This document shows positions 4,294 to 32,400 of a stretch of 64,000 nucleotides of DNA, in pieces. The number at the start of each line of letters is the position of its first letter. Positions within the stretch are counted from its first letter, which is position 1. A program made the position numbers and the translations under genes. Location of the stretch: the IMG/VR virus record IMGVR_UViG_3300010340_000980; one strand, given 5' to 3'. Under the pieces are notes generated by a model. The model worked only from the letters and a program-made list of their open reading frames with translations, was not told the origin of the DNA and ran no database searches. The DNA comes from an uncultured virus (IMG/VR IMGVR_UViG_3300010340_000980) (lineage: Duplodnaviria > Heunggongvirae > Uroviricota > Caudoviricetes).

Positions 4294-4738
4294 ATGGAAA
4301 AAATTACAAAAAAATGTAATAAATGTTTAGAAGTAAAAAATCTTGATCTTTTTTATAAACACAAAAAAGTTTGCAAAATTTGCCATAATAAAATTTCTAA
4401 AGAATATAGATTATTAAATATAGATAAAGTCAAAGAAATTAGTCATAAAAACTATCTTAAAGATAAAGAAAAAAGAAGGGCTTTTATCGGAAGAAATACT
4501 TGGATGCACATTTGTTGAATTCAAATTATATTTGGAATCAAAATTTGAACCTTGGATGAATTGGGAAAATAGAGGAATATATAATGGTGATTTTAATTCC
4601 GGATGGGATATAGATCATGTAGTTCCTTTATCAACTGCAATAAAGGAAGAAGATATAATTAAATTAAATCACTACACAAATTTACAACCTCTGTGTAGTA
4701 AAATTAACAGAGATATTAAAAAAGATAAAGTAGAATAA
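4294..4738 (+). pseudogene. split/internally deleted HNH homing endonuclease
   Basis: N-terminal CxxC..CxxC fragment and C-terminal ILGC..FE.WMNWEN..WDIDHVVP...LNHYTNLQPL fragment in different frames; paralog of the intact gene at 36765..37439. Confidence 0.75.
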
Positions 4739-4936
4739 CCAGCCTTCTGTTTTTAAACACACAATTTATCTATTGTCCTCTACCTCGACATCATCGCGTT
4801 GCTCACCCGCTAGTCTGTTTTGAGTTTAATCCTCGATAGTGCTAACGACTTATTAGGTCTCCTATCTTAAGCAAAGATTGGCTGAGTTTCCTCACATCCA
4901 TTTCTGGGTAGTGCTGTGCGTCCTCTTTTTCTTCTT
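4728..4936 (-). ncRNA. rnpB: minimal RNase P RNA (catalytic domain only)
   Basis: Minus strand: GAGGAAACTCAGCC (CR-I) pairs with AACAGAAGGCTGGTTA (CR-V) to form P4. TAAACTC...GAGCAA (P15 region) and TAGATAAAT (CR-IV) present. P2 ACGCACAG/TTGTGTGT. TAtaTTTG promoter directly upstream. Confidence 0.8.
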
Positions 4937-4972
4937 ATATACAAATATAATAAAAAATTTAATATATAACCT

Positions 4973-5710
4973 ATGAAATATTTATTTATTTTACTAACAC
5001 TGATTGTTATAGGTTGTACTCCAAATAAAAATCTATCAAATAATTCAAATAAAAATGATAATTTTGTAGATTCTAATGAAGTAGAAGAGGTTTCAATGCT
5101 TATGAGTAAAAGAGAATCTTATAATCCAATTATAATTCCAGAAAGTAATCAAACACAAGAAAAACAAAAAGTTTTTAACAATAATTCAAGTATTGTTAAT
5201 ACCGAAACTAATTTAGGTCAAGTTGTTTATAAAGTACCTGATACAATGCAAGTAATGAAAAATTATGAAGTCATTGTTAGAATATCAAAGTCTCAAACTA
5301 ATGTTGAAATACATAACAATCTAAACGGTAAAGTATTCCAAAAGAATATCAAAACATCCAATAAAATGCAAGTTGAGTTAATAGACCCAACTGGAAATTC
5401 TTTTAAAGTTACTCCAGTTAATATTGTGAAACAACTTGTAGATTCAACTTATACAGAATGGAGATTTAATGTCACTCCTTTAAAATCAGGAACTAATAAA
5501 TTAAATTTAGTTATCTCTATATTCAAAGATGATGATATCAAACAAATAGTTTATTCAGATGATATATATGTTCGCTCAAATCCTAAAGCAGAGATTAAAT
5601 CTTTTTGGTATGATAACTGGAAATGGGTTTTTGAAAAAATGTTAATTCCACTAGCATCATGGTTGTTCGGTATATGGTTAGGTAGAAAAACGAAACGAAG
5701 AAGAAGATGA
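4973..5710 (+). CDS. putative lipoprotein with C-terminal membrane anchor
   Basis: Signal peptide with lipobox IVIGC; C-terminal hydrophobic helix followed by a basic tail. Confidence 0.7.
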   Translation: MKYLFILLTLIVIGCTPNKNLSNNSNKNDNFVDSNEVEEVSMLMSKRESYNPIIIPESNQTQEKQKVFNNNSSIVNTETNLGQVVYKVPDTMQVMKNYEVIVRISKSQTNVEIHNNLNGKVFQKNIKTSNKMQVELIDPTGNSFKVTPVNIVKQLVDSTYTEWRFNVTPLKSGTNKLNLVISIFKDDDIKQIVYSDDIYVRSNPKAEIKSFWYDNWKWVFEKMLIPLASWLFGIWLGRKTKRRRR

Positions 5711-6559: not shown

Positions 6560-6588
6560 TAAAAAAGAAGGGATTAACCCTTCTTTTC
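6560..6588. terminator. bidirectional terminator
   Basis: aaaagaaggg-attaa-cccttctttt inverted repeat between convergent genes. Confidence 0.65.
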
Positions 6589-7389
6589 TACAAATTCATC
6601 ATATTTTTCAATAACTCGATTCGAGTCTCTTTTGTTCCAAGCCTTGTTTAGAAAAAGAAGTTTATTCTTATCAATTCCACAATTGCGGTTAGAAATATTA
6701 CCCTCATTGAAAAGAGCAATCATTTCATCCATACTCAAAGTCTTATGCTTACTATCAAATTTAGGATCAGGATGTGACCATCCAAATTTAAACAACCAAT
6801 TTAAAAGAGCCTTTTTATTGACATCTTTATAATCTTCTGTCGTTCCATTGCCACTTCTTTTTGAAAGTTTTTTATTTCCTTCGAAAAGGAGTCCGGCATG
6901 TATAACTTCAGGGAATTGCTTATCACCTTCAACTTTACAAATTTCATCCCAAATTCTTTTTTGTTTATCAAGGTTAGAAATATGATCCACACCACGAATG
7001 ATGTGAGTAATATCATAGTCATAATCATCTAAAATAGAACAGAAGTTATAAGTTGGAAATCCATTATTTCTAAGAATAACCATCTTATATTCTCCCATAT
7101 CAAGTTCGTAACCATTTTCAGTTTTGGTTCCGATCTTTTCAGCAACCTCCTTATATCGATCTAATCTATCAGATTGCTTGAAAGTCAAATCATAATCAAG
7201 ACCAAACTGGTCCATTTGATCAAAGATATAGTCAATATACTCTTGCTTATTTCTTTCTTGATCAGTATCATCGATGCGAAGTATAAATTGACCACCATTG
7301 GCTCTCGCCATCAAATAGTTAAGAAGAGATGTACGGAGATTTCCGATTTGAATATATCCCGTTGGGGATGGCGCAAAGCGACATTTCAT
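6574..7389 (-). CDS. glutamyl-tRNA synthetase catalytic domain only (GluRS/GluQ-RS-like, 271 aa)
   Basis: RFAPSPTG, HIGH-like QIGN, LRIDDTD, ITHIIRG.DH, KLSKR; no anticodon-binding domain. Confidence 0.85.
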   Translation of the reverse strand: MKCRFAPSPTGYIQIGNLRTSLLNYLMARANGGQFILRIDDTDQERNKQEYIDYIFDQMDQFGLDYDLTFKQSDRLDRYKEVAEKIGTKTENGYELDMGEYKMVILRNNGFPTYNFCSILDDYDYDITHIIRGVDHISNLDKQKRIWDEICKVEGDKQFPEVIHAGLLFEGNKKLSKRSGNGTTEDYKDVNKKALLNWLFKFGWSHPDPKFDSKHKTLSMDEMIALFNEGNISNRNCGIDKNKLLFLNKAWNKRDSNRVIEKYDEFVEKKG

Positions 7390-7558
7390 ATGTTTTTGTT
7401 TTCTTTTATATATTTTACAAAGATAATAAAAAATATAAGATTTTCAAATTTTTAAAAACTTTCACTTGGGTAACTTTTAGTAGTTAAAGGGTATACATAT
7501 AGATATTTCAGTTAGTCTCACTGAAATTAAGATATCTCAAATTATTTAGCATTAACTT

Positions 7559-8092
7559 TTAAACATTGAAATACAATGCCCACCCAAGTGGATAGATATT
7601 CGTGTTTCTTTTTTGCCATTTTTTAGTATCTTTCATTAGATATAGATAAATAGAGTCTTTTCTTTTATCACCTGTAGCTCCTATACAATATTCATCATAG
7701 TCTATTTTTATATCTTTTAATATCCATAATAATCTTGAATAAACTTCAATTGCTTCCCCTTTATCACTTGGATCCTCATAGTTTACTTGATTTCTATCAA
7801 ATAGAGTAAATGATATATGATAGATTTTTGTATTTGGCTCTTTATGTAATTCTAATTTATAATCACTTTCCGATTTAGATTTGAAAAGTATTAAATAATT
7901 ATCACCGTTTTTTTCAACATCATAATCAGTTTTAATACCATCAAAAACCTCCTCATTTACTTTTTTAAATCCATTTAGTACAAAATCTTTAGATTTCGAA
8001 TATATTCTATATTTTTCTTTTCTATCTAAGTAAGGATTATTATTATCATTTATGTATGATGTATAATGATCATATTTTACTAAAATATTCAT
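7559..8092 (-). CDS. hypothetical protein (late-type promoter)
   Basis: 177-aa ORF with TAATATATA upstream. Confidence 0.65.
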   Translation of the reverse strand: MNILVKYDHYTSYINDNNNPYLDRKEKYRIYSKSKDFVLNGFKKVNEEVFDGIKTDYDVEKNGDNYLILFKSKSESDYKLELHKEPNTKIYHISFTLFDRNQVNYEDPSDKGEAIEVYSRLLWILKDIKIDYDEYCIGATGDKRKDSIYLYLMKDTKKWQKRNTNIYPLGWALYFNV

Positions 8093-8102
8093 AGTTTATA
8101 TA

Positions 8103-9707
8103 TTAACCATTCCAACCTTCTTTAAGACTGACTGTTTTATTGAAAGCCTTACCACACTTGTCTAAAATGTAATATCCTTTACGCATCATTTGAACAGCAT
8201 CTTTCACATTTAAAACGTGTGGTTCAAAAACAGCTTTGTTATTCACAACTAATGAATTAGGATTCAAATCAGATATAAAATCATCTCCAGGAGTCTCAAC
8301 ACTGAATAATCTATCATATTCATTAACAGGTATATTAATACCATGTTCAATAGATACCCAGTGAATTGTACCTTTAATCTTTCTATCTAAAACCATTCCT
8401 GACTTAGAAAGAGGATCATAAGTACACTTGATTTCAATGACATCACCATTTAAATCCTTAATAACTTCTTCCGCCTTAATAACATACGCACCTTTCAATC
8501 TAACTTCACCACCTAATTTCAATCTGTGAAACTTGTTATTAGCTTCTTCTCTGAAATCTTCCTTTTCAATCCACAACTCACCACTGAATGGAATCATTCT
8601 CTTACCAGCAGTTTCATCTTCTGGATTATTCTCTACTTCAACCCATTCAGTGCCGCCAGTCCAGTTAGTTATAGTAACCTTTACGGGTTCCATAACGCCC
8701 ATTAATCGATTAGATTTTTTGTTTAGATCATTTCTAAGACACTCTTCTAAAAGAAGATATGAAACAACCGAATCTCTTTTAGTTACAGAAATTCTATCAC
8801 AAAAATCTTTAATTGACTCTGGTGTAAATCCACGTCTTCTTAATCCAGAAATAGTTGGCATTCTTGGATCATCCCATCCGTCAACAAATCCTTCTTCAAC
8901 TAATCTCTTCAATTTCCTTTTAGACATTACCATATAGTCAATATTCAATCTAGCAAACTCAGTTTGTACAGGAAGATCAGATGGTAAAAAGTTTTTCAAT
9001 TTGGTCAATATCCAATTATAAAATTCTCGATGTGTTTCAAATTCTAGTGTACATAAAGAATTAGAAATTTTTTCTAAAGCATCGGAAATAGGGTGAGCAT
9101 AATCATACATTGGATAAATACACCATTTATCACTTGTTCTATAATGTGTATGTTTTTTTATTCTATATAAGACCGGGTCTCTCATTAACATATTTGATGA
9201 TTCTAAATCAATTTTTGCCCTTAATGTAGCACCGCCTTCCTTATAATCTCCATTTTTCATTCTCTCAAAAAGAAGCAAATTTTCCTCAATGCTTCTGTTC
9301 CTAAATGGACTTTCAGTGCCTATGGTAAATGGAGTTCCATTATATCTTGAAAGTTCTTCAGAACTCAACTCACAAACATAAGCATCCCCATTACTAATTA
9401 GTATCTTGGCAAATTCAAAAAGAATTTCATAATAATCAGATGTATAAAATACATTTGATGGTTTGAATCCAAGCCATTCTATATTTTCAATAATTGGATT
9501 TATAAAATCAACCTTTTCAGTTGTTGGATTTGTATCATCGAATCTTAAATTACACTCAACTCCATATTTTTCCGCTAATCCGAAATTTAAACAGATTGAT
9601 TTAGCATGGCCAATATGCAAATATCCATTATTTTCTGGGCTAAATCTAAATTTTAGATTCTTTTCTTTAAATTCATCTTCTATAATTTTTTCTATAAAAT
9701 TTTTCAT
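8103..9707 (-). CDS. glnS: glutaminyl-tRNA synthetase
   Basis: RFSPENNGYLHIGH, RFDDTNP, WCIYPMYD, MSKRKL, GWDDPRMPTISG, KGTIHWVS. Confidence 0.97.
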   Translation of the reverse strand: MKNFIEKIIEDEFKEKNLKFRFSPENNGYLHIGHAKSICLNFGLAEKYGVECNLRFDDTNPTTEKVDFINPIIENIEWLGFKPSNVFYTSDYYEILFEFAKILISNGDAYVCELSSEELSRYNGTPFTIGTESPFRNRSIEENLLLFERMKNGDYKEGGATLRAKIDLESSNMLMRDPVLYRIKKHTHYRTSDKWCIYPMYDYAHPISDALEKISNSLCTLEFETHREFYNWILTKLKNFLPSDLPVQTEFARLNIDYMVMSKRKLKRLVEEGFVDGWDDPRMPTISGLRRRGFTPESIKDFCDRISVTKRDSVVSYLLLEECLRNDLNKKSNRLMGVMEPVKVTITNWTGGTEWVEVENNPEDETAGKRMIPFSGELWIEKEDFREEANNKFHRLKLGGEVRLKGAYVIKAEEVIKDLNGDVIEIKCTYDPLSKSGMVLDRKIKGTIHWVSIEHGINIPVNEYDRLFSVETPGDDFISDLNPNSLVVNNKAVFEPHVLNVKDAVQMMRKGYYILDKCGKAFNKTVSLKEGWNG

Positions 9708-9726
9708 ATTTTAATTTTTTAATATT

Positions 9727-10548
9727 TCAAGAGTTTATCCACCTCCTTATTGTGCTTCTGGTAACACCATATTTTTTTCCAACTTCTGTATAGTTTGATA
9801 GTTCAACTTCTTTGATTAAATCTTTTTTATTTGGTCTCTTTATTTTTCTTCTTTCTAAATCTTGACAATTTCTACATCTTTTTGATTTGTAAGAAATCAC
9901 ATTTCCACAAGAACATTTTGGTTTTTTACTTTCTATATTTCTACCGGCAAATGTTTCAAGTGTTGAATTGCAATTTGGACAAATTATTTGAAGATTTTCT
10001 ATTCTATTATCATTATTTATCCCATTTATATGATCTATTATCAGTGACATTTTTTTACCATGCCAATTCTCATCCTGACCACATAATTCGCATTTCCTCT
10101 CTTTTATTTTCTCCTCAAAGAGTCTTCTTTTAAGTGTTGATCTATCGTAATTCGAATTTTCTGTAAGAACTTCTGATAGTTTAACTTTTTCTTTTTTACC
10201 AAATCTGCTTCTTTTATTGAAAGACTCGAAATGTGAAATATCAATATTATATTTTTTGATATATTTATTTAGAGTTCTGAAATTACAACCGTGTGGTGTT
10301 AAACTCATTTTTATTAGAACATCAGTTTGATTAATTGACTCAGATATAAGCTTCGATAGATTATCTTTTTGCCAATGGTCTTTAACATAATCAAATTTGA
10401 AATTAATTTCATATTTTTCTAAATAAAATTTTAACGAATTATAGGAGGAGGCACCAACCTTTAATCCTAGTTTTTCAATTACTTCCTTAAATGTAGAAGA
10501 ACCTTCAACACATTTTTCCAAATTTTCTCTTGTCCATCTCTTTTCCAT
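9727..10548 (-). CDS. HNH homing endonuclease
   Basis: CELCG...DHING..NDNR.ENL...CPNC; C-terminal HTH. Confidence 0.9.
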   Translation of the reverse strand: MEKRWTRENLEKCVEGSSTFKEVIEKLGLKVGASSYNSLKFYLEKYEINFKFDYVKDHWQKDNLSKLISESINQTDVLIKMSLTPHGCNFRTLNKYIKKYNIDISHFESFNKRSRFGKKEKVKLSEVLTENSNYDRSTLKRRLFEEKIKERKCELCGQDENWHGKKMSLIIDHINGINNDNRIENLQIICPNCNSTLETFAGRNIESKKPKCSCGNVISYKSKRCRNCQDLERRKIKRPNKKDLIKEVELSNYTEVGKKYGVTRSTIRRWINS

Positions 10549-10616
10549 TATGTAGTGTTTTTTAAGTATATATTAAAATGGTGACTTAAAAACCGTTATT
10601 TATTGTTCCCAAATTG

Positions 10617-10687
10617 TTCCTCCATCTCGTACTGACCGAGATCCCAGTGTTTCAAAGACACTGATGCTTCCTTCACACCCTGGAGGA
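10617..10687 (-). tRNA. tRNA-Gln(UUG), atypical T-loop
   Basis: Acceptor TCCTCCA/TGGAGGA; anticodon arm AGTGT-CTTTGAA-ACACT; T-loop GTCAGTA. Confidence 0.7.
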
Positions 10688-10694
10688 GTGTTTG

Positions 10695-10768
10695 CTATCC
10701 GGGTAGGGTTTGAACCTACAAAAACTAAGGTCAAAGCTTAGTGCGTCTGCCAATTTCGCCACCGGACA
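10695..10768 (-). tRNA. tRNA-Gln(UUG)
   Basis: Acceptor TGTCCGG/CCGGATA; anticodon arm CTAAG-CTTTGAC-CTTAG; GGTTCAAACCC T-arm. Confidence 0.9.
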
Positions 10769-10775
10769 ATATTAG

Positions 10776-10848
10776 ATGCTCTGACAGGGTATGATCCTGT
10801 AATATCTGAGTCAAAGTCAGATGTGATAGCCAATTTCACCACAGAGCA
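10776..10848 (-). tRNA. tRNA-Gln(UUG)
   Basis: Acceptor TGCTCTG/CAGAGCA; anticodon arm TCTGA-CTTTGAC-TCAGA; T-loop ATCATAC. Confidence 0.85.
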
Positions 10849-10850
10849 AT

Positions 10851-10883
10851 AAAAAACCCGAATCAATTAGATTGATTCGGGTT
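10851..10883 (-). terminator. attenuator terminator upstream of the tRNA-Gln cluster
   Basis: AACCCGAATCAAT-CTA-ATTGATTCGGGTT followed by a U-tract ending 2 nt before the first tRNA. Confidence 0.9.
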
Positions 10884-10912
10884 CAGTACTTTTAGACAAT
10901 ACTATACCATTA

Positions 10913-10966
10913 TCAATCTGTTCGATTAATTTGTTGTTGCTGTTGGTATTGAGTAAAAGTTGTCAT
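10913..10966 (-). CDS. Gln-rich attenuator leader peptide MTTFTQYQQQQQINRTD
   Basis: 17-aa uORF with 6 Gln codons (5 CAA, 1 CAG); its stop overlaps AGATTGAT, which is complementary to the terminator 5' arm. Confidence 0.85.
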   Translation of the reverse strand: MTTFTQYQQQQQINRTD

Positions 10967-10970
10967 ATTG

Positions 10971-11012
10971 TTTATATATTTTTTATTATGTCTTTGTTTT
11001 ACAAATATACGG
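10971..11012 (-). promoter_or_regulatory. tandem host-type (TAtaTTTG) and AATATATA promoter boxes of the Gln leader
   Basis: ccgTATATTTGtaa ... aAATATATAaacaatATG. Confidence 0.65.
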
Positions 11013-11019
11013 ATTTTTA

Positions 11020-11529
11020 TTAAAAAATGTCTTCAACAATTTTCTTAAAAGTATTCATCAATATATCTAAATTAATATTTTCTTTAAATAAAATAAATGA
11101 TTGATTTCCATTTTCAACATTTGTGTATAATTTATAACTATAGTCTTTTTCTATTTCTTTAGAAAATCTCCAATACAGTTTTTTTCTACCTTCTGATTCA
11201 TCTAAAGATCCAAAAATTAAAGCATCTGGATCCTTAGTCTCAATCAAGTACTTCATTCCTTTTCTAACGGTTGATAAAACTGACATCTTACCGGTATTAA
11301 AATTAGTAAGTCCTGGATTCATAACATTTGTATTTTGATCATATAAATAAAATTTATAAGTCCAAATATTATTATCTCTGTTAATACAGTCTATTTGATA
11401 AACTTTTTCATCTACTGAAAAAAGACCTATCAGTTTATTAGACCTCTCAATCCATCTAATTTCTACATCAGAATCATAAGATTCTTTTAATTTGTCAAAA
11501 AAGATTTCAAGACTTTTAATGATTTTCAT
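11020..11529 (-). CDS. hypothetical protein
   Basis: 169-aa ORF; ends with an R.KLY motif region loosely similar to 7559..8092. Confidence 0.65.
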   Translation of the reverse strand: MKIIKSLEIFFDKLKESYDSDVEIRWIERSNKLIGLFSVDEKVYQIDCINRDNNIWTYKFYLYDQNTNVMNPGLTNFNTGKMSVLSTVRKGMKYLIETKDPDALIFGSLDESEGRKKLYWRFSKEIEKDYSYKLYTNVENGNQSFILFKENINLDILMNTFKKIVEDIF

Positions 11530-11554
11530 TTCATATATATCATTTTTCTATTTG

Positions 11555-11642
11555 TGTAGATGTGAGGAGTCGAACCTCAATTTACCTTACGGGAATCGAA
11601 CCCATACGGATGCCTCCGTTAAGTCACCAGACTACATCTACA
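11555..11642 (-). ncRNA. tRNA-like RNA with two T-arms and no anticodon loop
   Basis: Acceptor GTAGATG/CATCTAC-A, short D-arm, ACGGA-GGCA-TCCGT hairpin, then GGGTTCGATTCCC and GAGGTTCGACTCCTC. Confidence 0.55.
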
Positions 11643-12246
11643 TTATAATTATTTGTTTAATTTTATTTTTTATATTTTTACCACCATTTGTTTCTAATGT
11701 TGCATTGCAATTTGGACAAACAATTCTTAAATTTTCTAACCTATTATCGTCATTTACACCATTTATATGATCAAGAATTAAAGACATTTTTTTACCTCTC
11801 CAATTTTCATCTTGACCACATAATTCACACTCTTTCTTTTTAATTTCATTGCTAAATAAAACTTGTTTTATTTTTCTTCTGTCTGTAATAGAATTTTCTA
11901 CAAAAATATCATTTAATTTAGTGTTTGAATTCTTTTTTCTTTCTATATAAAAATGTGAAGTTTCTAATTTTTTTATTTTTATCCATTTTTTAATGGTATT
12001 TCTGTTACCGCCTGTTGTCTTTAATTTTAAATTTCTACATATATCAACTAAGTTTTTTGACTCTAAAACCACCTTATCAAACTCTTCACTTTCATAAAAT
12101 GAAGATGAATTAAATTTTAATCCAAGTTTCTTTGCTTTATTACCAATAGATCTTGGTGTTCTATTTAATTCCTCTGATAAAATTGTTGGTCCTTTAATTT
12201 CATAAAAATCAATCAATATTCTAATTTCAACCTCTGTCCAGTTCAT
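11638..12246 (-). CDS. HNH homing endonuclease
   Basis: CELCGQDENW..KKMSLILDHING.NDDNRLENLRIVCPNC; paralog of 9727..10548. Confidence 0.9.
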   Translation of the reverse strand: MNWTEVEIRILIDFYEIKGPTILSEELNRTPRSIGNKAKKLGLKFNSSSFYESEEFDKVVLESKNLVDICRNLKLKTTGGNRNTIKKWIKIKKLETSHFYIERKKNSNTKLNDIFVENSITDRRKIKQVLFSNEIKKKECELCGQDENWRGKKMSLILDHINGVNDDNRLENLRIVCPNCNATLETNGGKNIKNKIKQIIIM

Positions 12247-12306
12247 AACTTTTTTCTTTTATATATTAAAAAATACTTACACCCTGGACAGAGTTTGAAA
12301 GGTCAG

Positions 12307-12380
12307 CGGACATGAAGGGATTCGAACCCTCGATCTTCTCAGTGACAGTGAGATATGTTAGGCCTCTACACCACACGTCC
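12307..12380 (-). tRNA. tRNA-Asp(GUC)
   Basis: GGACGTG/CATGTCC-G; anticodon arm TCTCA-CTGTCAC-TGAGA; GGTTCGAATCC. Confidence 0.92.
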
Positions 12381-12386
12381 GGTTAG

Positions 12387-12458
12387 TAGGGTATACCAGA
12401 TTCGTCCAAAACCAAGCGCACTAACTAACGTTAGTTAGATGGACTTTGCTAATACCCT
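12387..12458 (-). pseudogene. degenerate tRNA-Pro copy
   Basis: Ends nearly identical to the tRNA-Pro at 12742; palindrome CTAACTAACGTTAGTTAG in the D-loop; 3' anticodon strand and 5' T-stem deleted. Confidence 0.7.
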
Positions 12459-12463
12459 ATTTG

Positions 12464-12552
12464 CGGACACACCCGGACTCGAACCAGGATCTACCCCACG
12501 CACGGGGCCACTCTAACCATCGACGATTTTCGTCTAATTAAGCTATATGTCC
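12464..12552 (-). pseudogene. tRNA-Asp-like RNA with aberrant anticodon loop and D-loop hairpin insertion
   Basis: GGACATA/TGTGTCC-G acceptor; intact T-arm; GACGA-AAA-TCGTC insertion; CCCC-GTGCGT-GGGG 6-nt loop. Confidence 0.6.
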
Positions 12553-12557
12553 TTTTG

Positions 12558-12645
12558 CAGTCCCAACGGGAATCGAACCCGCTATTCAGCTTTCACCTAC
12601 TTCCTGATAGACAGTCAGGTGCACCAACCATTATGCGCTAGGACT
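12558..12645 (-). tRNA. tRNA-Asp(GUC) with long variable region
   Basis: AGTCCTA/TGGGACT-G; CCTGA-CTGTCTA-TCAGG; ~20-nt variable region. Confidence 0.8.
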
Positions 12646-12656
12646 AAATTTATTTG

Positions 12657-12736
12657 TCGCAGAGGTGAGAATCGAACTCACCACTCTAATGCTTCCAATG
12701 CACTGAGGCCTTTTTCATTACCTTGGTCACTCCGCG
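12657..12736 (-). tRNA. tRNA-Pro(UGG), atypical D-arm
   Basis: CGCGGAG/CTCTGCG-A (C1-G72, A73 Pro identity); loop ATTGGAA; GAGTTCGATTCTC. Confidence 0.7.
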
Positions 12737-12741
12737 ATATG

Positions 12742-12815
12742 TAGGGTATGCCAGATTCGAACTGACGATCTCTTGGTCCCAAACCAAGCGCGATACCGGA
12801 CTTCGCTAATACCCT
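12742..12815 (-). tRNA. tRNA-Pro(UGG)
   Basis: AGGGTAT/ATACCCT-A; CTTGG-TTTGGGA-CCAAG; CAGTTCGAATCTG. Confidence 0.9.
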
Positions 12816-12872
12816 TTTTTCTAATTCTATGCAAGGCCCAAGCCTTCTATGAATTAGTAACAGTCTCACTCG

Positions 12873-12944
12873 CAGTCCGTACGGAAATCGAATCCGCTTC
12901 TTCCGGTTGACAGCCGGATATTTATACCAACATACCCACGGACT
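12873..12944 (-). tRNA. tRNA-Asp(GUC)
   Basis: AGTCCGT/ACGGACT-G; TCCGG-CTGTCAA-CCGGA; GGATTCGATTTCC. Confidence 0.85.
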
Positions 12945-12960
12945 ATTTTTTAGATAAACT

Positions 12961-12997
12961 TACAAATATATTTCAAATTTTCTTAACTTCCAAATTT
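12961..12997 (-). promoter_or_regulatory. Bacteroidota-type promoter (-33 TTTG / -7 TAtaTTTG) directly upstream of the Asp/Pro tRNA cluster
   Basis: aaaTTTGgaag...aaaTATATTTGtaag on the minus strand. Confidence 0.6.
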
Positions 12998-13016
12998 ATT
13001 TTTACTTTTTAAAAAC

Positions 13017-13052
13017 AAAAAACCCAGTTAATCTTTTCAGACTAACTGGGTT
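13017..13052 (-). terminator. attenuator terminator upstream of the Asp/Pro tRNA cluster
   Basis: AACCCAGTTAGTCT-GAAA-AGATTAACTGGGTT followed by a U-tract. Confidence 0.9.
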
Positions 13053-13075
13053 CAGTTCTTTATAATGTCTCTACA

Positions 13076-13180
13076 TTACATAAACATGCAGTTAGCCTCT
13101 ATCGTATCAGGATCCTGATCCTGATCGACTACAACTTGTGGTTGCGGTTGGCTAACAAATATGTTTACAAATGTTTTCAT
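13076..13180 (-). CDS. attenuator leader peptide MKTFVNIFVSQPQPQVVVDQDQDPDTIEANCMFM
   Basis: 34-aa uORF rich in Pro/Asp/Gln/Val; contains AGGCTAACTG, complementary to the terminator 5' arm CAGTTAGTCT. Confidence 0.8.
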   Translation of the reverse strand: MKTFVNIFVSQPQPQVVVDQDQDPDTIEANCMFM

Positions 13181-13264
13181 TTCTTTATATATTAAAAAGT
13201 TTTTGTCTCTTTTGATTTTATATTACAAATATACGGAAAGTTTTTAAAACTTCCAAATTTATTT

Positions 13265-13606
13265 TTATTTTTTTGTAAAAATTGGTTCTGTTCTTGAACC
13301 AACTGATACCCACCTTACATTCAACTTTCCTTCTTTTACTAAAAGACTCAGACAAACTGATATCAATTTATAATGATAATAATAGTTAGGATGCAATGTG
13401 ATTACATGCTTAAATGAACTAAAGTAGTTCGTTGTTCTAACTATAGGATTAAGTGTGTTAAACTTATTCATAAAGTCTTCAATAGTAAACTCGTTTCCAA
13501 GTTTCGATTCAACAAATGGGTAAACATATCGACCAAAATAATCTGGTTGAACTTGTTCTTTTGCCCATCCTGTATAATTTGGGTTCCAAAGTGATTCGTA
13601 TTTCAT
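13265..13606 (-). CDS. hypothetical protein
   Basis: 113-aa ORF with TAtcTTTG promoter upstream. Confidence 0.65.
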   Translation of the reverse strand: MKYESLWNPNYTGWAKEQVQPDYFGRYVYPFVESKLGNEFTIEDFMNKFNTLNPIVRTTNYFSSFKHVITLHPNYYYHYKLISVCLSLLVKEGKLNVRWVSVGSRTEPIFTKK

Positions 13607-13727
13607 AACTTTAAAATTTATGAAAACTATCGTGTTTCTGTTACGCCACCACTGACTATTTTATTTTCATCAGTTATCAGTTCTGATTTCTTTTACAAAG
13701 ATAAGGAATTTTTTTGAACCACCAAAA

Positions 13728-14123
13728 TTAAATAGTATTTTTAATAATAACTCCACCTTTTGGATTATATTTTGGTAATCCAGTATGAATCTTCTTCAAA
13801 TATCTTTCATACTTTCTAAGAAGTTCTCTGATTTTTGGATCACTTGTATCATTGTAATCAAGTATACTTACTATAATTTGTTCTTTTTCATTATCTGGTG
13901 CTGATTCAATTTTTTCCTTCAGTAATGAAACCGTATCATCACTTACCCATAATTCGGATGGATTTATATATCCATCTAAAATAGATTGATAAAACTTGCT
14001 TTTTAGACCTTCTTTATTTCCAAATTTTGAATTTGCAATAATTTGAGTTTTATTAAATACTTTTTCACCAATTTTTTCTTTTAAAGAATTAATAATTTGA
14101 TCTTGTTTATTTTGTTTAGTCAT
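13728..14123 (-). CDS. hypothetical protein
   Basis: ORF; start moved to the ATG downstream of the tRNA. Confidence 0.6.
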   Translation of the reverse strand: MTKQNKQDQIINSLKEKIGEKVFNKTQIIANSKFGNKEGLKSKFYQSILDGYINPSELWVSDDTVSLLKEKIESAPDNEKEQIIVSILDYNDTSDPKIRELLRKYERYLKKIHTGLPKYNPKGGVIIKNTI

Positions 14124-14136
14124 AAATTTTAAATAG

Positions 14137-14210
14137 TGGGCCATGCTGGGTTCGAACCAGCGACCTTCTCGTTATGAGCGAGTTGCTCTGACCGACTGAG
14201 CTAAAGGCCC
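14137..14210 (-). tRNA. tRNA with CAU anticodon (probably Ile2, lysidine-modified)
   Basis: GGGCCTT/ATGGCCC-A acceptor; CTCG-CTCATAA-CGAG; body resembles ileX-type tRNAs. Confidence 0.85.
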
Positions 14211-25755: not shown

Positions 25756-26473
25756 CAAAAATTACTATAATATACTCGGTGTTACTCATGAGAGTACTGA
25801 GAAAGAAATAAAAAAATCTTATTATAAATTATCATTTGTTTATCATCCAGATAGAAACAAAGACATAGATACTACTATATTTAATTCTATAACAGAAGCA
25901 TATGATGTTCTTATGAGTTCTGAATTAAAATTAGAATATGATAAGAAAAGTAAATATGGTAAAGAATATAATGAACTTGAAGAATTATTTAAAGTAAATC
26001 TAGAATTCGATTATAATAGAGAAAATAATAAGTATGAGGAGTTTAAAAAAAATGCAGTACTTAATATAATTGAATATGTGGATGATAATTTTAATGGAAC
26101 AATTGAATATAATCGATGGGTTATATGTAAAAAATGTAATGGATCTGGTAAAGATACCAAATCTAAATTTGTTATTAAAGATGATAAAGGTAATATAAAA
26201 GGAGTTTTTGATTCAGATGATGGATGTGATTTTTGTGAAGGAACAGGAAAAGATCATTGGGGTAATAAATGTAGTTTCTGTTTCGGTCAAGGAAAAATAG
26301 GTTCTAAAGATTGTGATACTTGTAAAGGTGAAAAACGAATACTAGGAAAACAAAAACTAACAAAGATAAAATTAGATAAAGATAAAGATGAGACAATAGT
26401 TTCACACATGGGTCATTTTTCTAAATATGAGCCTGGTAAAGTTGGAAACCTTATACTAGTTAAAAAAATTTAA
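25745..26473 (+). CDS. DnaJ-family co-chaperone (J domain + zinc finger)
   Basis: YY.ILGV, HPD, four CxxCxGxG-type repeats. Confidence 0.92.
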   Translation: MNFNKNYYNILGVTHESTEKEIKKSYYKLSFVYHPDRNKDIDTTIFNSITEAYDVLMSSELKLEYDKKSKYGKEYNELEELFKVNLEFDYNRENNKYEEFKKNAVLNIIEYVDDNFNGTIEYNRWVICKKCNGSGKDTKSKFVIKDDKGNIKGVFDSDDGCDFCEGTGKDHWGNKCSFCFGQGKIGSKDCDTCKGEKRILGKQKLTKIKLDKDKDETIVSHMGHFSKYEPGKVGNLILVKKI

Positions 26474-29400
26474 TTTTTTTTCTTCGTTTCTGGTAATAAA
26501 TTAAAAATTCCTTTACTACTACCAGTCGTCTCTACACTACCAATACCACCAGAAAAACTGATAACAGGATTAATAGCTGTCTCAAATAAAGTCTCAGTAA
26601 TATTGATACTATCAATTAATGAAAATTCAGAATCGGAGTAATTTATTTGTGGAGCTACTGATGATAATGGTGCTTGAATTGATTGATTGATTCTATCCTC
26701 TCCGGCATAGTAGAAGAATGGAATAGCATCTACTTCATACATTTTAATGTAATCAAACTCAGTAGTATAAGGTTTTAATACAAAAACTACACCACCATCA
26801 GTTCCTAATGGAGTATTGTCATAATATGGTATACTAATACGAGCTAAGTAACCCCACACAGGATCAATTGTAATATCTTCTATTATAAAGAATCTATTAA
26901 TTTGTCCATTTAGATTAACATTTCTTTTAGAAACATATACTACGTCACCACCAGTTAAACCTGGATTTGATCCTGTAAAACCTAAATTATAACCACCACC
27001 ACTTGCTATAATATCATAAAAGTAAAGAGTTTGTGCCATAACCATTTGTAAAGATGGTTTATTATAGAAATATTCTTTCTTAATTATCTCAGATGTTTGA
27101 TTATGACCAACGATATCAGGAACTGCTGAAATATATGATACCAAATCATCACCTGTAAATAATTTAGCTTGAGGCTCATTTAATAAATATGGATATTTAA
27201 ATCCATTATTTTGAGATTGATGATTCATTTCAAATTCAATAATAGAATATCTAAATTTAGGTATATTTTTTGTGTTATCATTTTCAAGTAAAAATGGTCT
27301 ACTACTTTGAGTAACTGAAAATATTTTTAACTTATCAATATTATCAACAGATGTATTGGCAGTTAAAAATGGAGCCATTGTAACTCCACTAAAACTAGGA
27401 GTTAAAATACTTGTTCTCCACTTATTATTTTTTGTAAATCTATATAATCCTGGTATAGAGTATGTAACTCCCATTTCATATGATTCTGTTAACCCATCAA
27501 CATCCGACTCGAATAAACCGGTTACAAAACTTTGAGTTGAATTTATAGGATAATTAAAAAATGGATTTTCTATATAATCATCATATATTTGATATTTCCA
27601 CCCTAATGAATAATCTTTTATATCATCATTAAAAGTATTCTTAAAACTTGATATACTTGATAATATATCTTTAGTTGGATATCCATTATAATTAAGAATA
27701 GCTTTATTTGTTTCTAAATTAGCATCCCAAGAAATAGAATCTCTATAGATATTAGTCATTGATGATGTAAAATAATTTACATCAATCCAAGAATTATATT
27801 TTAAATAATTTTTAAATGTTGTAGAATCACTAAATCCGATATTTTCATCTTTGAATATAAAATTTTGAACTAATCCTGATGGATAGATAACAATCTGTCT
27901 ATCTTCATTTGAATTGTCAATATCATCCTGAATAGACATAGTTAATCCTTTAAATCTACCACCTTCAAACCTACCATCAATCCATTGAGAATCTATCATT
28001 TTTGTAATATATGGCCTTCCTTTAAATAATCCATTATTCCAAATTCCTTTAAATAATCCATTTAAAAATGCACCATTAAGCCAAATATTTTTTGAAAGAG
28101 AAATTAGATGGTTTTCAGAATCTTTTGAAATCCTTCTAATTGGGAAATTTAAAGTAACTTGTAATTTAATTATATCATCAGATACCTCAATAACTGTAAA
28201 ATAATCTCTTATAAGCTTTCTAGTATTATTAGAATCTAAACTAACAATATTACCAACAGCAACTTTATCACCAACTTTAAAATAATTTGGTATATTAAAA
28301 TCTTGTTGATTTAAAAATAAACCGTCATAATGAATATAACCTTTAGTTTTTCTTAAAGAAATAATCCAATTTTTAGTAGATGTTTTAATTTTTGTTAGAT
28401 TATTATCTATACTAGATGCTATATTTCCAATTTTTGTAGATTTTATATCAATAGATCCAGGAAAAGATAACGGTTTAGTGGTTCCTGGAAATATATCAAA
28501 ATCATCAAATAAATAAACATATTTATCATATCTCAATCCTTCATTCCAAACCCCATTTTCCCAAATACTTGAGAAAGCACTAGATGTTCCACTTGTGAAA
28601 ATACCATTACCAAATCGTGTAGATATTATATTACCATTGGATAAACCACCAATTAAGTCAATACTTGGTAGTAATAAATTATCATTATACGATGGGGTTG
28701 AATTTAACATTGAGTAAGTTGCGCAATTATATTCAGAATACTGAGATGTTTTTTTAACAACTTTAGCACTAGTTATTATTACTCTACCACCAGATGTGCC
28801 CGATATTTTTTTAATTTTCAATCTATCTAAATCTGAATAAGTTGCACCAATTGAAGTTGGTTCAAATGTTGAAGTCCAAGTTAACTCATCACTCTGACCA
28901 TACCAGGTCCCACTTGGTGGACATCCTATTTGATAAACTCTTAAATTCTGTGAAATTGATTCAACAAATCCACCATTATCATATCCAGGAAAATATCCTA
29001 CTTCTACTTGAAATCCTACTATTGCTATATTATTTAATGGTTCTGAAAAAGTTGGTCCATATTGTAGAACATATTTTATCTCAATATCATATTGACCAAA
29101 ATCTCTAAATATATTTCTATTTTGAGATGTATTTAAAGCGTATAAATAATTACCACCATTATATTCTATATAATAATTAGTATTATTCATAACTTGAGTT
29201 CCTTTATTCCAAACATATGGACCACCTGCAAATCCAACTGATGTAGTACAGTTTGTTAAATTTAAATATTTAGTATAAGATGTGGAATATTTCCATCTTT
29301 GTTGTGAACTTACAACAGACTGTGTAAAAGAAAGAGATGTTATATTTGGTTGGTCTTGTATAACTAACCAAGATGGATCAACACTAACAGTGAATGCATC

Positions 29401-32400
29401 ATTTATGAAAACATCACGATAACTATTATCATTAACAGATTGTCTATATAAAGAAATATTTGTTAATATATCAGAAACATATCCCTCATTAACTTCTATT
29501 CTTGGCGTACAAGACTCTTCTTGTATGATAATGCTATCAATATAAAAATCAGAGGTTCCATATGGATTAACATGTAAATAAAATTTACCATCATCTCTCG
29601 ATGTCAATATTTCAGTGATAGTTCCACCTAAAGTAGCTTGATAACCATCAACCCCAGATATTAATAAGTCAGGTACAGAACTTCCTACATGTCCTTCTAG
29701 ATCTGATAAATAATGAAAAATACTTATAGAATCTTCTCCTGATGCTACTTCTATAGCACTTGGATATAATGACCCATTATATGTTCCTGTAGTCTCACCA
29801 TATGATGCATTTATTTCACCTGGTCTACCTATACTAAATTGAATTCCAATTTTAGATAAATCAGATACATTAGCTATAGATACTGTTCCTATAGTAATAG
29901 TAATTTTATATTTATTTCCTAATGTGAATTGATTAGGAGATGTTGTTTTAATAAATGGTAGTCCAACACTATTAACAAGACTTAATGAATTATCAATGTC
30001 TAATTCAGTATCTTGATATGTTGAATAGAATCCAGAAACCTCCTCAACAAATGAAAAACTTGCACCATTTGTTATTGAAGTATCAACAAAAACTCTTGAT
30101 GATCCATTTAATGGTGAATTAGATAAATCTAGATTATCCCAAACTGAGTTCATTGCTAGATTAGCAATAGAACCATATGTATATAAACATCCATTAGGGT
30201 TAACACTATCATAACTAAAAGGAGATCCGTTCCAATTACCATTTCGCCATACACCACCTTCCCAATAAATATTATATGAATTCATATAATTAGCAACTCC
30301 GTTTTTCCATATCATCCCAACCGCAGTTCCAGATATCCATTTACCATTATTCCATTTAGAAATATAAAATTCTGAATCTTCAAATATTCCATTATCCCAA
30401 TAACAATTATCACTTATATTAAATCCACTTGTTCCCTTAACAACCTCAATATTTGAAATTGAGCAAGTTGCGATATTCCAACTTGGGACTGATGATAAAT
30501 TAGGAATTGTTTTAGGAATAAATTCTAAGCAAAAATCAGGGCCTACTGCATTAAATGTGTATGAAAAACTAGTTTTAGATGAAATATCAGATGATGTTAA
30601 GATAGTATTTCCAGTTAAAATAAACCCAGATAATTTATAAGTTGTATTAATAGTATTTGGTATAATTTGTAATACTAAGTCAGAATAAGCAGCTTCAAAT
30701 GTAAGAAAATATTCATTTGATGTACCACTAGGTACAGAATATGTGAAATTAGTATTAATAATAAAGTCATTTTGTAAAACACCACTTTCAATTATAACTT
30801 GGCTTGAGTCACAACTACCAACATATGGTGATGTAAATGATATTTCATCAAATGTGTAGAACTTAACAGTATAGATTTTACCAATATCTAAAATATCTGG
30901 ATATATTATATAACCAATACTATCACTTGTAGATGCATCATATTCAATATATCCTGGTGATCCAGTGGCGACCATCAATGTTGGTAATGTGGATGATGAT
31001 GTACTTGATAATATCCAATTTGAAAAAGATCCTGAAATTCCCTCAGTTAAATTTCTATTTCTAAGTGATGATGTCCAATTACCAAATCGAATTTCATTGT
31101 TATAATTTTCATCAACTATTAATCTCAATGTATATGTTTCTCCAATAATTAAACCTGATGTTTGATTGATATTAAGAATACTTGATGTTCCTAAAAATTT
31201 TAATAATTTACTAGAATCATTTGAATATAATTGATTAGATAAAACTTCAACCTGAGCTCCAATTATATCACCACTATCATAATCAAAATCAGTATAAGAA
31301 TTGTTCCAATATCCAATAGATCCTAAATTATTTTGATCAATTAATTGGAAATTACCATTTACTAAATAATTTACATAAGGATTAAATGATGATTTATAAA
31401 ATTTACCATTTAAAAAAGAACCACCAGTCCAAACAGAATTTTCCATAATTGCATTATTATGTGAAAATGTACCACCTCTCCATAATGAATTTTTAAATTC
31501 TACTGTAAGTGATTTCTTTTTCTTTGTAAATTGTCTTTCTAATTTTGTAAATGTTTTTTTATTTTTAATAGCAATATCTTTTACTTCACTAACATAACCA
31601 TTGTTCCATAACCCGTAAAAACTATCTGAAAAATTAGAAACATAACTAGGTATATTTGATAAATTTGTAGATTCTGTTCCAGAACCTATAAAATATCCTT
31701 TTGTTAAAATACCAGAATTCCAATATCTTCCTATAAAAATACCACCATTAAATTCACCATCATACCATGTTGAATTAGTACCTAAAGATGCGTTTCCAAA
31801 TTCACCACCGTTAAATTTACCATCTTGCCATGCAAAACTACTAGACCCAGCAGATGAATATGATGCTGCTGTAACATAAGGGTATCCATAATATGAAGTA
31901 AATTTACCATTATTAAATTCACCATTTTTCCAAATAGCTATATCATCAAAAGATCCATTATTAAAAGTTCCGTCATACCAAATTGCATTAAAAGGATAAC
32001 TAGGAGCAATTGATTCATACATTGATTCATCAATTTTAACTCCAAATAGACCGTTATTAAATATACCATTATACCAATCAATTTGGAAACTTCCAGAAGT
32101 GGCACCAGTTGGATTTTCAGTTTTAAATTCGGCTGAAATAACATTAATATTACTAAATGATCCTGATAATATACGTGTTAATGGATATTTTAAATTTCTT
32201 TTACCAAAATTTCCAGAAATTGCTTTTCCTGTTAAGAAAGTTGAATTATAGAAATCACCATTTGAAAATAAACCATTTTCAAAATTACTTAATTCAAATG
32301 ATCCATTTTCAAATGTTCCATTTTGCCAAGAATATCTTGTAATTCCTTGATTAATTAAATTCTTTTGCTTATAATAAGATTGTTTCAAATCACTATAAAT

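Follow-up and report, generated by a model that had tools for sequence, protein, structure and literature searches.

The subject of this report is a small structured RNA encoded on the minus strand of a 64,000-nucleotide (nt) stretch of DNA, referred to here as the window, from an uncultured virus of the Caudoviricetes (IMG/VR record IMGVR_UViG_3300010340_000980). Ribonuclease P (RNase P) RNA is the universal cellular ribozyme which trims new tRNAs. The RNA of the window is read as derived from bacterial type A RNase P RNA by reduction to the catalytic domain (C-domain), a reading to which a probability of about 0.9 is assigned. A phage-borne RNase P RNA reduced in this way had been proposed in a preliminary description of the DNA, and the proposal is supported by the topology of the RNA, its universal motifs, the covariation within its family and the co-occurrence of the protein partner, RnpA, in related phages. 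A search of the full-text literature, which did not reach the supplements of the huge-phage papers, turned up no account of an RNase P RNA encoded by a phage.

The gene occupies positions 4936-4719 of the minus strand (approximately 210-218 nt), with the 5′ end of helix P1 near 4936-4933 and the 3′ end within a T-run at 4723-4719. R1, a covariance model built from relatives of the RNA, matches the window at 4718-4940 on the same strand with 213 bits and an E-value of 4.7e-70. The gene is intergenic, with plus-strand open reading frames (ORFs) at 4532..4738 and 4973..5710 on either side, and the GC content of the RNA stretch is 0.41-0.43, compared with 0.13-0.35 in the flanking intervals. The early account of a GC-richer intergenic RNA bearing the RNase P landmarks was borne out by the ORF map, the GC profile and a re-reading of the motifs, which places GAGGAAACTCAGCC at 4893-4880 and AACAGAAGGCTGGTTA at 4751-4736 on the minus strand. 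The span first given for it, 4728..4950, required correction at both ends, as the RNA reaches to approximately 4719 and positions 4950-4937 belong to the upstream DNA; the remainder stands.

All structural elements lie on the minus strand. P1 is formed by a 5′ strand at 4923..4933 and a 3′ strand at 4723..4733, the latter placed by alignment and folding and running into the T-run. Compensatory changes are found in all 11 of the 11 P1 pairs across the family; the pairing within the window itself requires internal loops, and its register was set by eye. The 5′ strand of P2 (4915..4921) pairs with 4763-4757 and forms a pseudoknot with P4. This is followed by the P3 hairpin (4893..4913), recognised from the sequence and by RNAalifold, which is capped by a GAAA loop and contains a UA/AU internal loop that does not vary. 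Conserved region I (CR-I) at 4880..4893 comprises GAGGAA and the P4 5′ strand AAC(U)CAGCC, in which the U at 4885 is bulged, and E. coli rnpB shows the same layout (GAGGAAAGUCCGGGC). P4 as a whole, AAC(U)CAGCC / GGCUGGUU, consists of 8 bp and the bulged U, joining 4893-4880 with 4744-4737. The statements that P4 carries compensatory changes and that P1 and P2 are able to form were thus correct; P3 forms as well, and the family covariation described below agrees.

Directly after P4, the P5 5′ strand (4877..4879) pairs with 4830-4828, and the P6 5′ strand UUGC (4871..4874) forms a pseudoknot with GCAA at 4802-4799 in the loop of P17. The linker J5/15, AAA in the window and NAA in the family, occupies 4822..4827 together with the P15 5′ strand CUC, at the place where E. 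coli has CAA-GGCC. The stretch 4781..4821 holds the L15 internal loop (5′ side AAAACA, 4821-4816; 3′ side GAGGUA, 4786-4781, with GGU inside), P16 (4815-4813/4789-4787) and the P17 hairpin (4812-4794). The P15 3′ strand GAG and CR-IV, GACAAUAGAUAAAU, follow at 4764..4780. The remaining stretch at 4737..4763 contains the P2 3′ strand, J2/4 with the ACAGAA of CR-V, and the P4 3′ strand GGCUGGUU.

The specificity domain (S-domain) of the bacterial RNA, which spans roughly 160 nt with helices P7-P14 and the regions CR-II and CR-III, was not found, a 32-nt irregular hairpin being the only element between the P6 5′ strand and the P5 3′ strand. This hairpin (4835..4866) stands at the position of P7-P14 and is composed of Pa (4866-4862/4839-4835) and Pb (4859-4847). 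It carries conserved loop nucleotides and is enlarged in two members of the family (L016 and L035). The distance from the end of the P4 5′ strand (4880) to the P15 5′ strand (4824) is 55 nt, rather than the approximately 45 nt first estimated, and is made up of P5, the P6 5′ strand and the hairpin. Since the spacer holds this hairpin, a stub of the S-domain remains; the S-domain had been described as absent, which is right for P7-P14 and wrong as a simple absence, a small conserved hairpin being left in its place. P18 was likewise not found, the P15 3′ strand (4780-4778) running straight into GACAAUAGAUAAAU. The words TAAACTC and GAGCAA, previously listed among the RNase P landmarks, resemble S-domain motifs of E. 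coli yet map to J5/15 with the P15 5′ strand and to the P6-forming loop of P17, respectively, and were rejected as remnants of the S-domain. A K-turn in the internal loop of the 32-nt hairpin was also considered and, judged by eye, fits poorly.

The closest known counterpart is the type A RNA of E. coli (RF00010; M1 RNA, encoded by rnpB, 377 nt), for which the sequence was taken from NC_000913.3. Both RNAs show the same order of P1-P6 and P15-P17, with the P2/P4 and P6 pseudoknots, and share the bulged U in P4, the GAGGAA of CR-I, the AGAnnAAU of CR-IV and the ACAGAA....G..UA of CR-V. They also share a P2 of 6-7 bp, a 3-nt J5/15 ending in AA and a GGU on the 3′ side of L15. Around CR-I, E. coli reads GAGGA-AAG(U)CCGGG-P5 and the phage family GAGGA-ANN(U)CNNNN-P5. 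From P5′ to the 5′ side of L15 the order is P5′-CAA-GGCC-AAAUA-P16 in E. coli and P5′-NAA-P15(3 bp)-AAACA-P16 in the phages, and on the 3′ side of L15 it is P16′-GGGUA-P15′ and P16′-G(A)GGUA-P15′. The 3′ portion of the E. coli RNA, P15′-P18-CUAGAUGAAU-P2′-CACGACAGAA-P4′-AU-P1′, corresponds to P15′-GNCAAUAGAnAAAU-P2′-..AACAGAA-P4′-UAY-P1′ in the family. In CR-IV, the phage consensus tAGA.aaAT (UAGAnAAAU) is aligned by nhmmer to UAGAUGAAU of E. coli. The phage RNA differs in its length of approximately 215 nt, in the replacement of the S-domain by the 32-nt hairpin, in the absence of P18, in being encoded by a phage and in passing undetected by RF00010. Its P15, P16 and P17 are merely 3, 3 and approximately 4-5 bp long.

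Relatives of the RNA are present in further phage and metagenome contigs, 25 of them full-length and distinct. A blastn search of 50,697 GenBank phage records returned two homologues, LR756502.1 and LR756511.1; a search for the P3/CR-I pattern gave five IMG/VR loci, and a similar pattern gave 49 metagenome loci. blastn searches with two GC-richer members against the GenBank phages returned no match for L036 and only the already known LR756502.1 for L055. Model R1, built from 19 sequences, scores 113-213 bits for 29 of the 57 phage and metagenome sources, the window counted. Nine more sources score 64-75 bits and hold interrupted genes, and one 5′ fragment scores 25 bits. The 19 metagenome or viral pattern loci with R1 scores of 6.2-22.5 bits or no match are chance matches in unrelated DNA. 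Among 185,579 representative prokaryote genomes the pattern gave ten matches, none of which proved to be a member of the family on rescoring with R1. Each of the five phage records scanned in full holds one copy of the RNA, and the RNA is carried by records that are catalogued as phage or as IMG/VR virus contigs. The search pattern fixes both P3 and GAGGAA, and their invariance within the set is therefore a matter of ascertainment.

Covariation within the family supports the fold. RNAalifold recovered P1, P3, P4 with its bulge, the hairpin pair Pa/Pb and helices resembling P15, P16 and P17. An all-against-all scan of column covariation added P2, P5, lying directly after the P4 5′ strand, and a pseudoknot of 4 bp that joins the strand following P5 to the P17 loop and sits where P6 lies in type A RNAs. 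A model-based alignment of 26 full-length members, all distinct, has standard pairs in 96.7% of its 1362 pair cells and compensatory changes at 43 of 53 pairs; slid controls gave 34-44%, and shuffles of the alignment had a mean of 67.7% paired, with 0/500 as high as the real value. Covariation had been named beforehand as a point on which the proposal might fail, and the outcome was strongly positive. An alignment of 19 sequences made with MAFFT only gave 93.1% paired cells and compensatory changes in 41/53 pairs, again with 0/500 shuffles as high and with slid controls at 35-44%.

The model-based alignment is biased towards nested helices, and P2 and P6 lie outside the structure of the model. 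Both nonetheless covary throughout, P2 in 6/6 pairs (97.4% paired) and P6 in 4/4 pairs (99.0% paired). The remaining core behaves similarly, with 6/8 covarying pairs in P4 (98.1% paired; bulged U in 26/26 members), 3/3 in P5 (100% paired) and 3/3 in P15, so that covariation is found in P1, P2, P4, P5, P6 and P15-P17. The GGU of L15 is present in 26/26 members, offset by one column in two of these, and the consensus of J5/15 is NAA. U-G and G-U pairs, eight at the P4 pair 62/357 and six at the P17 pair 274/298, fit the minus strand only, which identifies it as the RNA strand.

The protein partner of RNase P RNA is encoded by two of the related phages, both uncultured and of approximately 640 kb, and both carry the miniature RNA. 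The RnpA family PF00825 (cut-off 22.3 bits) matches LR756502.1 with 52-53 bits at 525186-525488 (L074:1687-1992) and LR745206.1 with 49 bits at 76462-76740 (L085:947-1294). The phage RnpA proteins carry the RNR motif, and their best PDB matches are RNase P proteins. When the RnpA of LR756502.1 was used in a tblastn search of the 50,697 GenBank phage records (E<=1e-3), it found itself and the protein of LR745206.1 only, with 51.6% identity between the two. LR745206.1 had been missed by the RNA searches and was reached via RnpA; R1 then gave a single match of 97.1 bits. Its RNA has a different P3 and the altered motifs GAGAAA and GCAAAA, and keeps P2, P4 with the bulged U, P5, the P6 partners (GAAC/GUUC), the CAA linker and GGU. 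As this RNA was found through the protein alone, it is one co-occurrence of RnpA and RNA that is free of pattern bias. A PF00825 search of two incomplete IMG/VR contigs did not find RnpA.

Several results weigh against the reading of the RNA as a reduced RNase P RNA acting on tRNAs. At the gathering threshold, Rfam 15 gave no RNase P match in the whole window, and the check with Rfam RNase P models that had been proposed for the prediction remained negative even at E<=10, where no bacterial A or B, archaeal, type T or nuclear RNase P model matched positions 4500-5200 or four relatives. RF00010, the gathering score of which is 100 bits, missed the RNA over the whole records LR756502.1, LR756511.1 and one further genome (G001), giving spurious matches of 8-11 bits elsewhere. 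In the opposite direction, R1 did not match the E. coli rnpB locus with default filters and gave a local match of 5.5 bits with filters off. A hidden Markov model of the family, run with nhmmer and filters off on a 36-kb test set, had its best match in the CR-IV/CR-V stretch of rnpB on the correct strand, at a weak E-value of 0.04. With no match by a model across families, it is topology and short motifs that carry the case for homology. Folded as a single sequence, the RNA shows no unusual stability (z = -1.64), a measure from which nothing can be learned where an RNA is pseudoknotted. RnpA was not found in the window by tblastn with phage RnpA, nor by PF00825 in LR756511.1 or in a complete 210-kb IMG/VR phage, both of which carry the RNA. 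The nearest tRNA gene in the window lies 5.7 kb from the RNA on the same strand, and the 3′ CCA is encoded by 0/7 of the window tRNAs (10694-14210), despite the strictly kept GGU. Lastly, the accessible text of PMC3001073 reports that an orthopoxvirus RNase P-like RNA did not cleave pre-tRNA in vitro, and its inactivity means that resemblance to RNase P is no guarantee of activity. The weak Rfam matches to mir-1502, VrrA and AS-pc02 are due to chance.

Reduced or virus-encoded RNase P RNAs are known from other sources. The type T RNAs of archaea (Thermoproteaceae), for which PMC3579882 describes an Rfam model, keep the C-domain and have lost most of the S-domain, for which reason the archaeal Rfam model missed them, according to the part of PMC3579882 that is available. 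The phage RNA is alike in both respects, the missing S-domain and the failure of standard Rfam models. Type T differs in having a 3-bp P2, a 2-nt linker between P5 and P15 and an archaeal type A-like core, as far as the same available part describes it, whereas the P2 of 6-7 bp, the 3-nt linker, the L15 GGU and the P6 pseudoknot of the phage RNA are bacterial features. Engineered bacterial RNAs consisting of the C-domain only, such as Eco CP RPR, likewise lack the S-domain and cut pre-tRNA less efficiently, whether or not RnpA is present, as described in the accessible sections of PMC4919922 and PMC5839562. These are laboratory deletions which retain P18, whereas the phage gene occurs naturally, is conserved and supplies a small replacement hairpin of its own. 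The camelpox RNase P-like RNA is also encoded by a virus and has a secondary structure like that of bacterial or archaeal RNase P RNA (PMC3001073, accessible text). By its description there it is set apart as an inactive RNA of a eukaryotic virus, whereas the phage RNA retains the full set of conserved core nucleotides and has relatives in which the cognate protein is encoded.

The processing of pre-tRNA 5′ ends together with the RnpA protein is the most likely function, and a probable one. The RNA would bind RnpA via the conserved core of P2-P4 and J2/4, using the phage's own protein where one is encoded and that of the host elsewhere. The complex would cut pre-tRNA 5′ leaders with metal ions acting at P4 in the usual way. 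It would recognise the substrate's acceptor stem, N(-1) and 3′ end, leaving the T-loop/D-loop elbow unread, and may serve for the maturation of the many phage tRNAs during infection, independent of the host ribozyme. In the portion of PMC4919922 that is accessible, an adenosine of J5/15 pairs with N(-1) and the GGU of L15 with the 3′ RCCA of the tRNA, and the bacterial C-domain alone is reported to cleave pre-tRNA with or without RnpA, at a lower rate and affinity. The suggested fit between S-domain loss and non-canonical T-loops in several tRNAs was not supported, as six of the seven window tRNAs have a standard TTCRANN T-loop, the one odd case being a tRNA-Gln at 10775-10848 (ATCATAC). Since a phage RnpA is paired with the RNA, the hypothesis is directly testable in vitro.

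A ribozyme derived from RNase P might alternatively have changed its task, acting on host tRNAs or mRNAs, on polycistronic transcripts of the phage, on tRNA-like structures or in its own release from tRNA arrays, with tRNA 5′ maturation not its main role. The shrinkage of the elbow-recognising S-domain to a conserved 32-nt hairpin and the loss of P18 would be in keeping with such a change, and host RNase P should already handle phage tRNAs. The gene also stands alone, away from tRNA genes, in the window and in phages of approximately 600 kb, there being no tRNA in the available flanks of the AT-rich group, to which the window belongs, or of three such phages. Nevertheless, the elements that address the acceptor stem, N(-1) and the 3′ end are all kept (the AA of J5/15, the GGU of L15, CR-I, CR-IV and CR-V), a third of the loci lie within tRNA arrays, with same-strand tRNA genes abutting the RNA in 10/30 family loci, and relatives encode the RnpA partner. 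A changed task is considered unlikely.

It is more doubtful still that the RNA is a non-catalytic decoy or adaptor which binds host RnpA, or another host factor, and so diverts or shuts down host RNase P. The protein-binding core of P2-P4, J2/4 and CR-IV is conserved, and many carriers are without an RnpA of their own. There is also the precedent of an inactive viral RNase P-like RNA, a decoy role having once been proposed for the orthopoxvirus RNA according to the accessible text of PMC3001073. A decoy would nevertheless have no need for the bulged U, the J5/15 adenosines, the L15 GGU or the P6 pseudoknot, all of which are conserved or covarying in 26/26 members, and the presence of RnpA genes in two relatives points to the building of an enzyme, against the titration of one.

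An unrelated structured phage RNA with a coincidental likeness, or a cellular RNase P RNA (e.g., from ultra-small bacteria) on mis-binned contigs, is very improbable: the covariance models match in neither direction, and two carrier contigs (L055 and L068, of 424 and 464 kb) are unclassified here, but more than six independent RNase P landmarks are correctly ordered and accompanied by the correct pseudoknots, RnpA occurs alongside the RNA, the carriers are filed as viral, the window holds phage-family genes and the prokaryote genomes yielded 0/10 real pattern matches.

Signals for expression of the gene are less uniform than its structure. The word TATATTTG lies upstream of P1 at 4942..4949 on the minus strand, 6 nt before the likely 5′ end, and is a weak candidate for a promoter. 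It is a possible -7 element of the Bacteroidota type. The RNA had been credited with its own TAtaTTTG promoter; the word itself is there (4949-4942), and family-wide conservation is not. In the 84 nt around the RNA start, TAnnTTTG occurs in 5/19 members, at a comparable position in four of these (the window, L037, L026 and L044) and inside the RNA in L068. At the other end, a clear GC hairpin and T-run stand directly 3′ of P1 in two relatives (L059 and L021). Three metatranscriptome runs from three studies each hold one contig of 164-180 nt that is at least 99% identical to the window and lies within 4739-4918. These contigs establish presence in RNA libraries and are no proof of transcription. 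They do not cover the flanks of the gene, and the same kind of short contig is held by a run that is probably of DNA, which makes them uninformative on the ends of the transcript.

The window has further content typical of phages, with PHROG matches to HNH endonucleases, an SbcC-like protein, an RNA ligase and an NAD-dependent DNA ligase. Seven tRNA genes are present, and tRNAs alone were reported by Rfam 15 at the gathering threshold. The glutaminyl-tRNA synthetase (GlnRS) encoded at 8103-9707 has its nearest counterparts in two uncultured phages of 634,780 and 642,428 bp, with 69.7% and 64.9% identity. Judged by this protein, the closest relatives of the window are the two RnpA-encoding GenBank phages. 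GlnRS belongs to a translation cluster at 6574-10848, which also contains an HNH endonuclease (9727-10548) and two different tRNA-Gln(UUG) genes (10694-10768 and 10775-10848). The 271-aa ORF at 6574-7389 consists of the catalytic domain only of a class I (Glu/Gln) synthetase. Three tRNA genes with the GUC anticodon (Asp) and quite dissimilar sequences lie at 12306-12944. One of these, at 12557-12645, measures 89 nt and has an extended variable arm, an uncommon trait for tRNA-Asp, and an HNH endonuclease ORF is adjacent (11638-12246). A minus-strand ORF of 2992 aa at 26470-35448 was without a match in PHROG at E<=1e-5.

An insert of approximately 640 nt, encoding a GIY-YIG endonuclease, interrupts the RNA gene after the L15 5′ strand in two lineages. 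The interrupted genes are exemplified by L072 (G003:C1:71400-72700) and L073 (G002:C1:4000-5300), with ORFs of 211 and 210 aa and Pfam E-values for GIY-YIG of 3.5e-11 and 4.7e-09. The stop codon of the endonuclease in L072 is the UGA of the conserved GGUGAGC in the P17 loop. The 3′ half of the interrupted genes is intact with matching partners, and uninterrupted sister genes exist (L036 and L038). A group I intron was rejected as the nature of the insert, as no intron was reported by Rfam and the insert is taken up almost entirely by the GIY-YIG ORF. Between the P5 3′ strand and P15, the 5′ half of L073 contains approximately 22 additional nt with a copy of the word GCAA on either side.

Taken together, and with somewhat better than even confidence, these observations may describe a two-part RNase P of huge phages, consisting of a ribozyme of approximately 215 nt and, in some of them, RnpA. 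It would be the smallest natural RNase P of bacterial type, blind to the tRNA elbow, and would mature a large and partly odd set of tRNAs when the host RNase P is limiting or shut off. Within tRNA arrays, the 5′ cleavage of the next tRNA would generate the 3′ end of the ribozyme, and the gene would be sufficiently conserved to be used as a homing site by a GIY-YIG endonuclease residing within it. If this is true, the RNA is a minimal functional core chosen by evolution, to be compared with the C-domain constructs of the laboratory and with archaeal type T, and a compact ribozyme for structural and engineering work. It would also explain why Rfam-based annotation of circular megaphages, in the accessible text of PMC8172020, found tRNAs and a tmRNA only. 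RNase P would then join the parts of the translation system that huge phages bring with them.

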